Below, piece by piece: positions 9,001-12,000 of a DNA stretch of 22,651 nt; positions within the stretch are counted from its first letter, which is position 1; each line of letters begins with the position of its first letter. This stretch comes from a virus (lineage: Duplodnaviria; Heunggongvirae; Uroviricota; Caudoviricetes), in the IMG/VR virus record IMGVR_UViG_2851938318_000003. One strand, given 5' to 3'. A program made the position numbers.

Positions 9001-12000
9001 AGGCCAGCTCGAAGCCTGGCAGGAGCATGCACAATTTGATACTGGTACATACAAACGAAAGAAGCCGCGCATTCTGGATGTGGTAACTGGCAAGATGATT
9101 ACGCTGGATAATACGCCGACTTCCGGTAAGCAGTCGTACGCAAAAGGTTCATCCATTGCTTTGGTCAGCCCGGTTGAATTCTCAACCTCTTCATGGCGCC
9201 GCGCGGTTTTGTCTCTCGATGAACATCAGAAAGCATGGTTGCTTTGGTGTTACAGCGAAAGCGTTCGATGGGGGCATCAGGTCACCATAACGCAATGGGC
9301 ATGGAGCGAGTTTAAAGATTTGTTAAGTAACAGAAAAATTGCAGGTAAGACACTGGATCGCCTGAAGACGTTAATCTGGCTGGCTGCACAGGATGTGAAG
9401 AGCGAACTTGCAGGGCGTGAGGCCTATGAATACCAGACACTGGCATCATTGGTGGGAGTGACAACAAAAAACTGGTCCGAGACATTTACTGAACGCTGGG
9501 TTGCAATGAAGCACATTTTTCTACAGCTTGATAGTGATGCTTTATTGCTTGTGACGAGAACACGTTCAAAACAAAAGGCAGCATTTTTACAGCAAAATAT
9601 TGCAAAACTGGATTAAAAGCCATATACTTCATGCAAATTTGGTATGTTGTAAAAAATGTATAAACCCGCTGCCGAGTGGGTTTTTTTTATGCCCTGAGTT
9701 GTACTTGTACGGTAAACATGCTGGCTGCTATGTAATAGAGTTTTTTTAGCCTGTAACCTCTTGACGGCATTGAATTGCTTTTGTTATGAGTTGTAAGCCA
9801 ATGTTATCATCTTGTATTGGGGTGGTTATGAAGGATGGTGCGCTGCTCAGGAGTTCTTCACTTTTTATTGCCTACATGGGATGCCTTGGATGGGGGAGTG
9901 CTTATTTCTATGGATGGGGTACTTCTTTTTACTACGGCTTCCCATGGTGGATTGTAGGTGCAGGTGTTGATGATGTTGCCAGAAGTTTATTTTTTGCAGT
10001 TATCGTCATTGCTATATTTCTTATCGGTTGGGGTATTGGTGTTGTATTCTTTTTCGCAGTGAAAAGAAAACATTCTATGCAAGAGCTAAATGTATTTCGC
10101 CTTTATTTTGCTGTGGAATTATTGTTTGTGCCGGCAATTATTGAGTTTTCTATATTGAGACAGAAGATTCAGGTACCTCTTTTGCTACTGTCAGCAGCGA
10201 TTGCGCTGGCGGTTACAATTTCGATAAGATCTTATGGGCGATTTTTATCGGTATCATGCTTCTATGATAAGCCATTTATAAAAAAACATTTTTTTGAGAT
10301 TGTGATGATTGCTTTTGTGGCATATTTTTGGCTTTTTTCATTTTTGACAGGATATTACAAACCACAGTTTAAGAAAGAATATGAAATGATTAATTATAAT
10401 GATGGTTGGTATTATGTTCTTGCTCGTTATGATAATTGTCTGGTTTTGTCTACTTCTTTCAATGCAGGTAGTAAAAGGTTTGTCATTTATCAATCAGCAC
10501 AAGATAAGAATCTTCAGGTTGATATTGTAAGGACCAGAATTTAATTGGCTGCATAAATAATATTTTAAGTTGCAAGTTGGCTATTCGTAGGAATAGAACC
10601 TTAGGCATGCTGAATGCGTTTTCTGAACATTGTTTTATAAACTGTGTCTGCTTGCTGTTGTGATCCTGCTTTTAGTGATGGTGATGATGGATTTCACCAG
10701 CAGGATAATGTTGGTACTGACTGATGGCGCTCTGGTCTGCGGCATTGTGGTATTGCTGTGGCCGATGATGAAAGAACAGAATGAATAATTCTTGACTTTT
10801 TTGTTTACTGTTTATTAAAAAATCAACCGCATGGTGAATCCTCCTTGGAGGGGCTAAATGATCGAGTTTTAAGGGCACGTAGCGAGTTCTGTTTGATCAT
10901 TGCAGAACTTAGCGGGAGGCGCCATGCGTACATCACTAGTGTTATTCCTTTTATCATTTTCCTTGTGAGTTCTGGCTGCGCATTGCGCAGCCTTTTTTTT
11001 ATGACCTGCCACTGGCAGATGGTCATCCTGTGATTTGATTCCGCTTCCGGCTTTTTAACTCTGTTCCTCTACACGGGAGAAATTCGATGTCGATTAAACA
11101 TTACGATGTTGTCAGGGCGGCGTCGCCGTCAGACCTTGCGGAAAAGCTGACACACAAACTGAAAGAGGGCTGGCAGCCATACGGCGGACCGGTTGCCATT
11201 ACGCCGTACACACTGATGCAGGCGGTGGCTATTGAAGGAGAGCCACAGGTCGGCCCTTCATCTGAGCCGGATTGGTACTACGTCATCGTACTGGCCGGGC
11301 AATCCAATGCCATGGCTTACGGTGAAGGGCTTCCGCTGCCGGATTCATACGATGCTCCGGATCCGCGCATTAAACAGCTGGCGCGCCGCAGTACAGTGAC
11401 GCCGGGCGGGGCTGCCTGCAGATATAACGATATTATTCCGGCTGACCACTGTCTGCATGATGTGCAGGATATGAGTACGCTGAATCATCCGAGGGCTGAC
11501 CTGAGCAAAGGGCAGTACGGCTGTGTCGGCCAGGGTTTACATATTGCCAAAAAACTGCTCCCGTATATCCCGAATAACGCGGGGATCCTGCTGGTACCAT
11601 GCTGTCGTGGTGGTTCGGCATTTACCCAGGGCGCGGAGGGGACATTCAGCGAGTCCACGGGGGCCAGTCAGGATTCGGCACGCTGGGGGGTGGGCAAGCC
11701 GTTATATCAGGATCTGATTTCCCGCACAAAAGCGGCATTGCAGAAAAATCCCAAAAACGTTCTGCTGGCCGTCTGCTGGATGCAGGGTGAGTTTGACATG
11801 AGCGCCGCCACCCACGTACAGCAACCTGCGCTGTTTACAGCCATGCTGACACAGTTTCGTGCTGACCTCTCCGTGTTTAACGCGCAGTGCCATGGTGGCA
11901 GTGCTGCAGATGTGCCGTGGGTTTGTGGTGACACGACGTATTACTGGAAAAATACATACGCTACCCAGTACGACACCGTGTACGGCGGGTATAAAAACAG

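Follow-up and report, generated by a model that had tools for sequence, protein, structure and literature searches.

The lambda genes bor and lom and the genes for P22 SieA, HK97 gp15 and T4 Imm are accessory envelope genes that carry their own promoter and terminator, are located between essential modules and are dispensable. In the Stx phage 933W the stxAB cargo is found behind Q, pR' and tR', ahead of nanS-p and the lysis genes, the full order being Q, pR', terminators, tRNAs, stx2AB and the SASA esterase gene. Phage 434 shares with the DNA analysed here a common module of lpxR, ylcG, a Q82-like Q, tR', tfpB, TciB, a small ORF, a terminator, nanS-p and the pinholin gene. Phage 434B carries DLP12 DNA in place of its Q gene, late promoter and lysis region and still forms plaques (PMC9119081). 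A nonhomology span is marked in the phage 434 record; tfpB is absent from 434B and is dispensable for plaque formation there.

The Salmonella relative of the gene, STM1630 (SL1344_1560 or SL1560), is an AT-rich gene of 717 bp encoding 238 aa, with the same architecture and 46–49% identity to the protein described below. It is one of a set of genes clustered by their co-regulation with SPI-2 (PMC2639726). The gene is induced in macrophages and was selected for study on the basis of intra-macrophage RNA-seq; it has a promoter of its own with a mapped TSS. STM1630 is a cold spot in TraDIS, and other cold spots, e.g. the neighboring sseJ, were ascribed by the authors to H-NS binding. Its deletion caused no defect in intramacrophage replication. 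The deletion mutant was hypermotile in one screen, a trait not among the phenotypes confirmed after clean re-deletion. No phenotype has been shown by experiment for any member of the TfpB/STM1630 family.

We analyzed a stretch of 22,651 nucleotides (the window; IMGVR_UViG_2851938318_000003), in which positions 7265–13741 are 99.6% identical to phage 434 at the nucleotide level. In phage 434 the module belongs to a viable phage, whereas in the window it belongs to a defective, IS-ridden EHEC prophage. The lysis cassette of this prophage is broken by an IS element; the tfpB gene is still intact.

Layout of the cassette behind the late promoter

The elements of the region are the following:

7491..8450, minus strand: lpxR homologue (outer-membrane lipid A deacylase); Pfam LpxR E=6.8e-40, RefSeq and phage 434 annotation
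8927..9616, plus strand: Q antiterminator of the phage 82 / Phage_antiter_Q type; PF06323 E=1.7e-91, RefSeq WP_001097238.1, 'Q82-like' in the 434 record
9600..9628, plus strand: pR'-like late promoter TTGCAA-17-TATACT; consensus scan, pR' of phage 933W likewise at the end of Q, putative function
9662..9692, plus strand: tR'-like intrinsic terminator, 9-bp stem (hairpin 9662–9683) followed by a T run; scan and 434 record
9761..9790, plus strand: own promoter-like element, -35 TTGACG at 9761–9766, 18-nt spacer, extended -10 TGtTATGAG at 9782–9790; conserved, putative function
9828..10544, plus strand: tfpB/STM1630-family coding sequence, predicted five TM helices and C-terminal 5-strand beta-barrel; conserved start, dN/dS and model
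10630..10788, plus strand: DUF3927/TciB-like membrane ORF of 52 aa; Pfam DUF3927 E=3.4e-14, PHROG 1470
10845..11033, plus strand: 62-aa ORF over the terminator, coding status uncertain; 'putative membrane protein' in 434
10974..11002, plus strand: intrinsic terminator closing the cassette, 8-bp GC-rich stem (hairpin 10974–10992) followed by T8; scan and 434 record
11087..12937, plus strand: nanS-p type SASA carbohydrate esterase; Pfam DUF1737, SASA and DUF6645
13385..13591: class II holin; RefSeq and phage 434 annotation

An earlier sequence-only reading had placed a gene for a membrane protein in the slot between Q with its tR'-like terminator and nanS-p, where Stx phages carry stxAB. This position was borne out: Q ends at 9616, the hairpin of the terminator spans 9662–9683, nanS-p occupies 11087–12937, and the order is the same as in 933W. 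Both terminators said to bracket the gene were found as well, the description having left out the two further small ORFs at 10630–10788 and 10845–11033 in front of the second one. For the latter of these, RefSeq gives a pseudogene on the opposite strand instead of the 62-aa ORF. The interval from Q to nanS-p contained neither a tRNA nor an Rfam RNA. Downstream of nanS-p a pinholin / SAR-endolysin cassette follows.

Comparison of viral contigs delimits a cassette at 9684–11111, which agrees with the proposed membrane-protein cargo in the pR'-proximal slot. Its left junction lies just 3' of the tR' stem at the start of the T run, with about 46 of the 80 viral contigs sharing position 9684; the right junction lies just inside nanS-p. 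The DUF3927 ORF accompanies tfpB in 79 of the 80 contigs. At one locus (L033) the same cassette is located behind a lambda-type Q (Pfam Antiterm), compared with the Phage_antiter_Q type in the window. The promoter element is kept in copies that have no upstream pR', namely those on ETEC plasmids, in C. rodentium, in a pap island and in an O43 prophage; the scan also returned an alternative candidate promoter, TTGTTA-18-TATCAT at 9781–9810. Both the structure of the cassette and the conservation of the promoter element were evident from these sequence comparisons. The gene bears the marks of a moron: a promoter element of predicted activity, the terminator at 10974, a GC content of 36% vs 46%, discrete junctions, a variable Q and absence from 434B.

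Start codon and family of the gene

The ORF had been described as an AT-rich frame of 252 aa at 9786–10544. The frame on the plus strand is indeed intact from ATG 9786 and its GC content is 36.1%, compared to 46.0% for the whole window, but the start has to be moved. Since the Met at residue 15 of the ORF (ATG 9828) is common to all 25 aligned homologues and the -35/extended -10 element overlaps ATG 9786, translation likely starts at ATG 9828, giving a product of 238 aa from 9828–10544. Annotated starts differ: the start is put at ATG 9801 in RefSeq and in the record of phage 434, and at 9828 in that of phage 2B8. Pairwise dN/dS values of nine diverged copies ranged between 0.05–0.19, indicating purifying selection. 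A spurious ORF was therefore rejected and the gene is real.

The sequence-only reading could not assign the protein to any family, which proved incorrect. The protein is 100% identical to CPT_434_68 of phage 434 ('putative membrane protein', UMO75332.1) and to RefSeq WP_001302581.1. It matched PHROG 1521 with E=2.1e-154 over residues 31–252, a PHROG without an informative category. PF27470 (TfpB) was precomputed on the identical protein cluster (P0001) and on all homologues, and PGAP labels copies of 99.6–99.7% identity as 'STM1630 family protein'. The PF27470 and PHROG 1521 profiles were matched over full length. Alignments showed the architecture of the family, i.e. about 235–250 aa, an aromatic/Gly-rich helix 1, a G-x-P loop, TM helices and a beta domain with a YY.L motif. 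By these sequence matches the protein is a member of Pfam PF27470 TfpB, the PGAP STM1630 family and PHROG 1521 and was already catalogued. All three are families without assigned function, and the gene is an ordinary uncharacterized moron, not a new type of system.

Searches of the protein against local Pfam-A, NCBIfam and PADLOC profiles gave nothing significant, the Pfam and NCBIfam copies used having no TfpB or STM1630 models. Among 62 family members scanned against Pfam no weak match recurred, and the family profile, run against PDB sequences, returned chance-level matches only (E about 0.2). In the literature WP_001302581 is mentioned in no paper.

Predicted topology and conserved surfaces

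The AlphaFold model (pLDDT 79, pTM 0.71) shows five long helices and a C-terminal SH3-like barrel of five strands; an earlier model from 25 close sequences (pLDDT 61) was too poor for use. The earlier estimate of about four TM helices is thus to be revised, as the aromatic/glycine-rich N-terminal stretch is included in the model as helix 1. The roughly 60-aa soluble domain suggested for the C-terminus was recovered, with about 55 aa in the model. Mean numbers of K/R per loop in 62 homologues were 1.4, 0.03, 2.2, 0.5 and 3.1, and by the positive-inside rule the N-terminus is therefore placed inside and the C-terminus outside. The predicted topology of five TM helices, N-in and with a periplasmic barrel was assigned from the positive-inside rule and the AlphaFold model. 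With a mean Kyte-Doolittle value of 0.53, helix 1 has low hydrophobicity and might fail to cross the membrane.

The best-conserved stretch comprises helix 1 with loop 1 and the beginning of helix 2. Helix 1 forms the most conserved surface and shows repeated small-xxx-small residues with flanking Tyr/Trp; next in rank are the GFPWW segment of the first periplasmic loop and helices 2 and 5 at their periplasmic ends. A15, A25, Y26, G31, G37, P39, G175 and Y195 are nearly invariant in the 62 members. In this alignment only Ala, Gly, Pro and Tyr are conserved family-wide, and no polar residue fit for catalysis is. An enzyme with a GT-C-like Asp in the first periplasmic loop was dismissed, D47/D48 and R52/S53 being lost in the Klebsiella/Enterobacter subfamily. 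As there is no family-wide polar candidate for catalysis, whereas helix 1 and the periplasmic surfaces are conserved, we infer a non-enzymatic role in binding an envelope component.

Foldseek searches against the PDB and BFVD (viral predicted structures) gave no match below E=0.04. The protein is superficially similar to MscS-type channels in that its last TM helix runs directly into a small beta-barrel. Foldseek matches to MscS and Hfq were weak with E>1 and a probability of at most 0.16 (MscS at most 0.11). The beta domain of MscS is cytoplasmic, whereas the barrel here is predicted to be periplasmic. An MscS-like channel was rejected because the matches are non-significant, the predicted orientation is opposite and no match to the Pfam MS_channel profile was found.

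Distribution and possible roles of the protein

The family is widely distributed outside phages. Copies of at least 99% identity were found in 679 of 5,426 complete E. coli genomes, and homologues on 106 Shigella plasmid records including pWR501 (pINV). On ETEC plasmids (LT/STb) a homologue is located about 870 bp from eltA (eltAB). In UPEC a homologue is found in a pap island, at the end of the fimbrial cluster and next to a MarR-type regulator with IS remnants in between, and a decayed copy in a UTI89 island. C. rodentium has lpxR and tfpB side by side in divergent orientation, with 73–74% nucleotide identity to the window. In Neisseria, Mannheimia and Avibacterium (Neisseriaceae, Pasteurellaceae) the gene occurs alone amid housekeeping genes, and one Klebsiella copy lies in the end region of a prophage, with a reverse-transcriptase gene nearby. 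Helix 1 and loop 1 are strongly conserved from Enterobacteria to Neisseria. Many database copies are truncated or frameshifted and the gene is therefore dispensable in many lineages. The link to virulence elements may reflect hitch-hiking of prophage remnants. The profile search of contigs with the closer alignment returned 5 loci only. Phage records with the gene are few: 3 of 50,697, representing two distinct phages (434 and 2B8), and no sequenced Stx phage among these records carries it. The homology of Stx phages to the window begins only at about 11074–11094, the start of nanS-p.

We consider it slightly less than an even chance (roughly 0.45) that, taken together, this TfpB/STM1630-family moron of the phage-434-type late-control module acts as an envelope factor of benefit to the host. 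The accessory cassette at 9684–11111 is a self-contained insertion immediately downstream of pR'-tR', with nanS-p and the lysis genes following it. Its product would be a polytopic inner-membrane protein of 238 aa with the N-terminus inside, five predicted TM helices and a periplasmic SH3-like beta-barrel. The protein would be non-enzymatic, probably oligomeric, and would bind or organize an envelope component on the periplasmic side. Two routes of expression can be envisaged. The gene may be transcribed from its own sigma-70 promoter, which is probably silenced on the AT-rich DNA until relieved by signals of the host type, as for the Salmonella orthologue. Q-dependent read-through of tR' after prophage induction could also reach it. 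Lytic growth of the phage does not need the protein, which would most likely serve as a factor of lysogenic conversion or envelope fitness for the bacterial carrier in an animal host rather than in replication, lysis or toxin production. Oligomerization, periplasmic binding, regulation in E. coli and the benefit to the host are what we infer here.

Superinfection exclusion or abortive infection, in which the periplasmic barrel blocks incoming phage DNA or infected cells die so that the lysogen is protected, is somewhat disfavored and in our view unlikely. P22 SieA, T4 Imm and HK97 gp15 are exclusion proteins which interfere with DNA injection, and the predicted conserved surface facing the periplasm would suit such interference. 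A phage-borne moron encoding a membrane protein under its own promoter element, the spread of the gene by mobile elements and the Klebsiella copy near the reverse-transcriptase gene are consistent with exclusion too. However, none of the 5,027 PADLOC defence models (PADLOC-DB v2) was matched, only the two phages named above carry the gene, and the copies in Neisseriaceae and Pasteurellaceae lie outside defence islands. The Salmonella copy is vertically retained and SPI-2 co-regulated, and a helix 1 and loop 1 this strongly conserved between Enterobacteria and Neisseria would be unusual for a protein engaged in an arms race. A host-interaction factor, likewise considered in the sequence-only reading, fits the distribution better than either form of phage exclusion.

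An orphan immunity protein, which would protect the carrier from a toxin aimed at the membrane (a pore-forming colicin or microcin, for example, or a T6SS/CDI effector), appears improbable. A solo polytopic inner-membrane protein without a conserved partner gene, encoded by an AT-rich and mobile gene, would be compatible with this role, and the adjoining DUF3927 ORF belongs to a PHROG labelled 'TciB-like ... resistance to colicin'. This label is an annotation transfer, though, and no toxin gene adjoins any copy examined. Immunity proteins usually diversify rapidly, unlike this protein with its purifying selection and highly conserved N-terminal half.

About as improbable is a late-phase accessory protein of the phage, made by Q read-through to modulate the envelope before lysis (lysis timing, release, or prevention of re-adsorption to debris). 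In every phage context the gene immediately follows pR'-tR' and precedes the holin gene, behind two unrelated Q families and with the pinholin / SAR-endolysin cassette downstream, and this fixed place could just as well indicate that its importance lies in late expression driven by Q. On the other hand 434B forms plaques without the gene, although its whole lysis cassette was also swapped, the family thrives on plasmids, on chromosomes and in other bacterial families, a separate holin is encoded at 13385–13591, and the gene is intact in a prophage with an IS-broken lysis cassette. A holin is usually shorter than 150 aa, is a membrane protein whose gene adjoins that of the endolysin, and is required for lysis. 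We therefore rejected tfpB itself as a holin or lysis protein: its product has 238 aa and five TM helices, a 1.85-kb esterase gene lies between it and the lysis genes, a holin is encoded elsewhere, and the gene is missing in 434B.

A pilus- or adhesin-associated accessory membrane protein, as the family name TfpB, the annotation of one E. coli fragment as 'protein tfpB' and the copy at the end of the pap fimbrial cluster by a MarR-type regulator might suggest, is very improbable, because no pilus genes are found near the copies in the window, 434, ETEC, Shigella, Neisseria, Mannheimia and Avibacterium and IS remnants separate the pap cluster from its copy. The namesake tfpB is an ORF in the type IV pilin inversion region of Moraxella bovis and M. 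lacunata. A link to it, suggested by the Pfam name, could be real; our sequence searches recovered no family member from Moraxella.

The gene has been part of the classical phage 434 since the 1950s and is carried by about 1/8 of complete E. coli genomes at 99% identity or more. The start codon, candidate promoter, predicted topology, conserved periplasmic surface and defined cassette given here provide starting points. An envelope fitness or exclusion factor would be a new function for a cargo slot best known for Shiga toxin. It is unlikely, though conceivable, that lambdoid phages load an unrecognized single-protein envelope determinant of a new exclusion or immunity class into the pR'-proximal slot; the conserved surface of helix 1 and loop 1, facing the periplasm, together with the SH3-like barrel would then keep out foreign DNA or a toxin aimed at the membrane. 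Such a class would explain why the gene has spread to pINV of Shigella, to the toxin plasmids of ETEC and to prophages of EHEC.

In comparison with known systems, tfpB is like stx a dispensable cargo gene which read-through by Q would reach. The two show no relation in sequence or structure: tfpB encodes an integral membrane protein without signal peptide and without AB5 architecture. A secreted AB5 toxin was dismissed for this single polytopic membrane protein without a toxin domain. STM1630 is unlike the copy in the window in being chromosomal, located between steB and sseJ and without phage context; it is kept vertically across Salmonella subspecies. No homology was detected to lambda bor/lom, P22 SieA, HK97 gp15 and T4 Imm, and the product of tfpB is larger, with five predicted TM helices; in the layout of an accessory envelope gene and in its dispensability, however, tfpB resembles all of them.

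The tfpB gene and its neighbours

The sequence-only reading had placed a 252-aa open reading frame between Q and nanS-p and bracketed it by terminators. Our ORF call, Pfam assignments and terminator scan confirmed the coordinates of the frame, both terminators and the neighbours:

9600-9628, upstream of tfpB: pR'-like promoter, TTGCAA-17-TATACT (consensus scan)
end at 9616, upstream of tfpB: Q antiterminator gene (Pfam Phage_antiter_Q, E=1.7e-91)
9662-9683, upstream of tfpB: terminator hairpin, then T run, tR'-like (scan)
9761-9790, overlapping ATG 9786: conserved promoter-like element, TTGACG (9761-9766), 18-nt spacer, TGtTATGAG (9782-9790)
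9786-10544, + strand: intact open reading frame of tfpB, 252 aa
10630-10788, downstream of tfpB: DUF3927/TciB-like membrane ORF, 52 aa (Pfam DUF3927, PHROG 1470)
10845-11033, + strand, downstream of tfpB: 62-aa ORF (ORF call and phage 434 record)
10974-10992, downstream of tfpB: GC-rich terminator (scan)
11087-12937, downstream of tfpB: nanS-p type esterase (DUF1737, SASA and DUF6645)

At 36.1% GC the tfpB ORF is poorer in GC than Q (45%), nanS-p (56%) and the window (46.0%). Translation had been assumed to begin at ATG 9786, a codon overlapped by the promoter-like element. The methionine at residue 15 of the ORF, encoded by ATG 9828, is common to 25 of 25 aligned homologues, most of which start there, and a Shine-Dalgarno-like GGGGTGG is found just 5' of it. 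The start is annotated at 9801 in RefSeq and phage 434 and at 9828 in phage 2B8. ATG 9828 is likely the true start, giving a tfpB gene of 238 aa at 9828-10544.

Judged by its coding sequence tfpB is a real gene: comparison with nine diverged copies (E. albertii, Escherichia sp., C. rodentium, the O43 prophage, an ETEC plasmid, pWR501, the pap island and two Salmonella subspecies) yielded dN/dS values of 0.05–0.19 (Nei-Gojobori), the distant pairs being near saturation at synonymous sites. Selection of this strength rules out a non-functional ORF.

The DUF3927 ORF accompanies tfpB in 79 of 80 IMG/VR viral contigs; the 'TciB-like' label of PHROG 1470, which stands for colicin resistance or inhibition of cell division, was transferred from the annotation of phage P1. 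Annotations of 10845-11110 conflict: the 434 record shows a 62-aa 'putative membrane protein' on the + strand overlapping the terminator, RefSeq a frameshifted pseudogene on the - strand overlapping the nanS-p start. The window also carries three IS3-family (IS629/IS1203-like) copies at about 2861-4170, 13740-15049 and 19477-20786, each with an ALIL frameshift pseudoknot. One of them closely follows the holin gene (13385-13591) and so breaks up the lysis cassette, which makes the prophage defective. Compared with O111 strain 11128, the ybhC-integrase-lysozyme fragment (1-4169) has the opposite orientation and a different location, presumably through IS-mediated rearrangement.

Distribution of the family and boundaries of the cassette

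The sequence-only reading had left the protein unassigned, and the annotators of phage 434, using HHpred and TMHMM, called it no more than a 'putative membrane protein'. Local Pfam-A, NCBIfam and PADLOC libraries gave no significant match either. Nevertheless both gene and family are already catalogued: the window protein falls in PHROG 1521 (function unknown, E=2e-154), precomputed Pfam assignments place every homologue in PF27470 (TfpB), and recent PGAP annotation names 99.6–99.7% identical copies 'STM1630 family protein'. When 1.84 billion cluster representatives were searched exhaustively with HMMER, only 74 reached E<=0.001; the family is therefore small. It comprises proteins of Enterobacterales (Escherichia, Shigella, Citrobacter, Salmonella, Cronobacter, Enterobacter, Klebsiella, Yersinia), a divergent Klebsiella/Enterobacter/Raoultella subfamily, and proteins of animal-associated Neisseriaceae and Pasteurellaceae. 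The E. coli gene also turned up, 100% identical, on a 3-kb contig filed under a Veillonella sp. MAG, most likely a binning contaminant.

Of 5,426 complete E. coli genomes, 766 carry tfpB at a coverage of at least 80%; 1,203 records gave some match in this search, 679 of them at an identity of at least 99%. Among 50,697 phage records only 434 and 2B8 possess the gene, with products 100% (CPT_434_68) and 98% identical to the window protein. Window and phage 434 share 7265-13741 at 99.6% identity, a span comprising lpxR, ylcG, a Q82-like Q, tfpB, TciB, nanS-p and the pinholin.

Junctions were surveyed in the 80 viral contigs whose copy encodes an identical protein. In about 46 of them the stretch homologous to the window starts at 9684, just past the tR' stem where the T run sets in; in about 37 of the 80 it ends at 11111, 24 nt inside nanS-p, and in others at 10839 or 10854. 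These sharp, recurrent mosaic junctions bound a tfpB-tciB cassette; phage 2B8 is also homologous from 9684 onward. One contig of the 9684 class (L033) has a lambda-type Q upstream (Pfam Antiterm, E=4e-58), of a family unrelated to the Phage_antiter_Q of the window. The O43 prophage shows a third arrangement: Q, tfpB, DNA methylase and tRNA-Ile/Arg, on to nanS-p. A short N-terminal piece of a lambda-type antitermination gene at 7276-7347, just upstream of lpxR (partial in RefSeq, 'antiterminator-like protein' in phage 434), points to an ancestral Q whose place was taken by the lpxR-ylcG-Q82 block.

The pattern TTGAC(G/A/T)-18-TGnTA with the Shine-Dalgarno sequence and ATG is retained in copies lacking Q and pR' upstream, namely on ETEC plasmids, in C. 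rodentium and on the pap island. Homology of the ETEC copy begins at 9757 and takes in this element, not pR' or tR'. We infer that 9761-9790 acts as a conserved private promoter of tfpB.

Relatives live in several other contexts. Shigella carries a homologue on 106 plasmid records, including virulence plasmid pWR501 of M90T (intact, 57% identity, annotated merely as hypothetical; L019, 6001-6717). On ETEC plasmids it lies about 870 bp from eltA, divergent to eltAB and near stb and astA; in porcine ETEC plasmids (L005, 3990-6717; L020, 2987-5714) the homologue (59% amino acid identity) is found between IS elements. It follows the pap operon and a MarR-type regulator on a UPEC-type island, and UTI89 has a decayed copy near iro. 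C. rodentium tfpB adjoins a divergent lpxR homologue with no Q between (L013, 4863-5823; lpxR split into two ORFs; 73–74% nucleotide identity to the window). In the window the lpxR (lipid A deacylase) homologue (7491-8450, - strand) lies 1.3 kb upstream, also divergent and separated from tfpB by ylcG and Q; lpxR and tfpB may form a linked unit or be the relic of a prophage. At Klebsiella prophage ends the order is SRAP, TfpB, umuDC, invertase and SASA protein. Loci L008-L012 of the divergent Klebsiella/Enterobacter subfamily keep this order (YedK-like SRAP, umuC/umuD, serine invertase, SASA-domain protein), with a reverse-transcriptase gene inserted in one copy. Together with nanS-p in the window, a SASA-domain gene thus occurs near tfpB in two unrelated contexts. 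In Neisseria animaloris, Mannheimia varigena and Avibacterium tfpB stands alone between housekeeping genes. Across the plasmids, islands, prophages and chromosomes surveyed no conserved partner gene was detected.

Predicted structure and topology

Hydropathy shows four strong segments and a weaker aromatic/glycine-rich N-terminal one. An AlphaFold model built from 62 diverse homologues (pLDDT 79.3, pTM 0.71) turns the latter into a helix, so that the four transmembrane helices proposed earlier become five (10-36, 47-79, 84-111, 116-137, 155-181), followed by a five-stranded beta-barrel (184-235). In the 62-sequence alignment K/R counts are 1.44 for the N-tail and 0.03, 2.23, 0.50 and 3.05 for loops 1 to 4; the positive-inside rule gives a predicted N-in, C-out topology, and the barrel would therefore be periplasmic.

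The most conserved parts are helix 1, loop 1 and the N-terminal half of helix 2, followed by the periplasmic half of helix 5; helices 3-4 are variable, as are the loops on the cytoplasmic side. Near-invariant family-wide are A15, A25, Y26, G31, G37, P39, G175 and Y195, with no obvious catalytic residue among these positions of the alignment. Small residues at every fourth position of helix 1 (G21, A25, G29, S33, G37) form a helix-packing motif, a hint that TfpB may oligomerise. Foldseek searches of the model against PDB and BFVD gave no match below E=0.04, and the barrel only weak SH3/Sm-like ones (E>0.6; HIV integrase CTD, KorB-C, Hfq). A family profile search for solved structures found no relative.

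Possible roles of TfpB and comparison with Stx phages

Experimental data come from relatives, among them Salmonella STM1630, located between steB and sseJ. Intra-macrophage RNA-seq led to the choice of this gene for study; a TSS of its own has been mapped, and SNPs in the -10 box silence it in ST313. Deleting it caused no drop in replication inside macrophages. STM1630 belongs to a 123-gene cluster co-regulated with SPI-2 (PMC2639726). In SL1344 the gene (SL1560, 717 bp) received one insertion and is a transposon cold spot; the authors suggested that H-NS blocks insertion in neighbouring AT-rich genes such as sseJ (PMC3632133). A deletion-library screen reported hypermotility of the mutant (PMC4219756), which does not appear among those phenotypes that held up when clean deletions were remade (PMC4534456).

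We rank first, at a probability of about 0.45, that tfpB is a host-benefit envelope moron. Inner-membrane TfpB, probably oligomeric, would act through its conserved periplasm-facing surface, would be expressed from its own promoter and by Q read-through, and would not be needed by the phage. This ranking is based on the autonomy of the cassette (own promoter-like element, recurrent junctions), on the occurrence of tfpB outside phages, where Salmonella has retained it vertically under virulence-type regulation, and on the lack of a defence-system signature. Superinfection exclusion or abortive infection, among the possibilities raised in the sequence-only reading, would suit a phage-borne membrane protein with a predicted periplasmic domain but fits less well with the housekeeping contexts and deep conservation of TfpB, and we consider it rather unlikely. 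Orphan immunity to a membrane-targeting toxin appears improbable. An equally low probability is assigned to a late-phase phage accessory protein: the constant position behind pR'-tR' fits such a role, yet the family lives outside phages and 434B lacks the gene. The genome paper of phage 434 reports that in this clear-plaque isolate DLP12 DNA took the place of about 5.5 kb, with Q, the late promoter and the lysis region among the sequence lost (PMC9119081), and because the annotated nonhomology span in the phage 434 record includes tfpB, the gene is dispensable for plaque formation. The family name hints at a link with pili, which we regard as very improbable.

To the catalogued gene the analysis adds its likely start, a predicted private promoter that is conserved, a model with five TM helices and a periplasmic barrel, a map of conservation, the limits of the cassette at tR' and nanS-p and a survey of contexts. 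An uncharacterised moron in this slot will not surprise the specialist; being so widespread on enteric virulence elements, the family is a reasonable experimental target.

The comparison with the stx slot made from the sequence holds. In phage 933W the order is Q, pR', terminators, tRNAs, stx2AB and then the SASA esterase, and in Stx phages homology to the window sets in only around 11074-11094, at the 5' end of nanS-p. stx2AB in 933W thus occupies the same slot as tfpB in the window, with Q, pR' and terminators on one side and the SASA esterase on the other.
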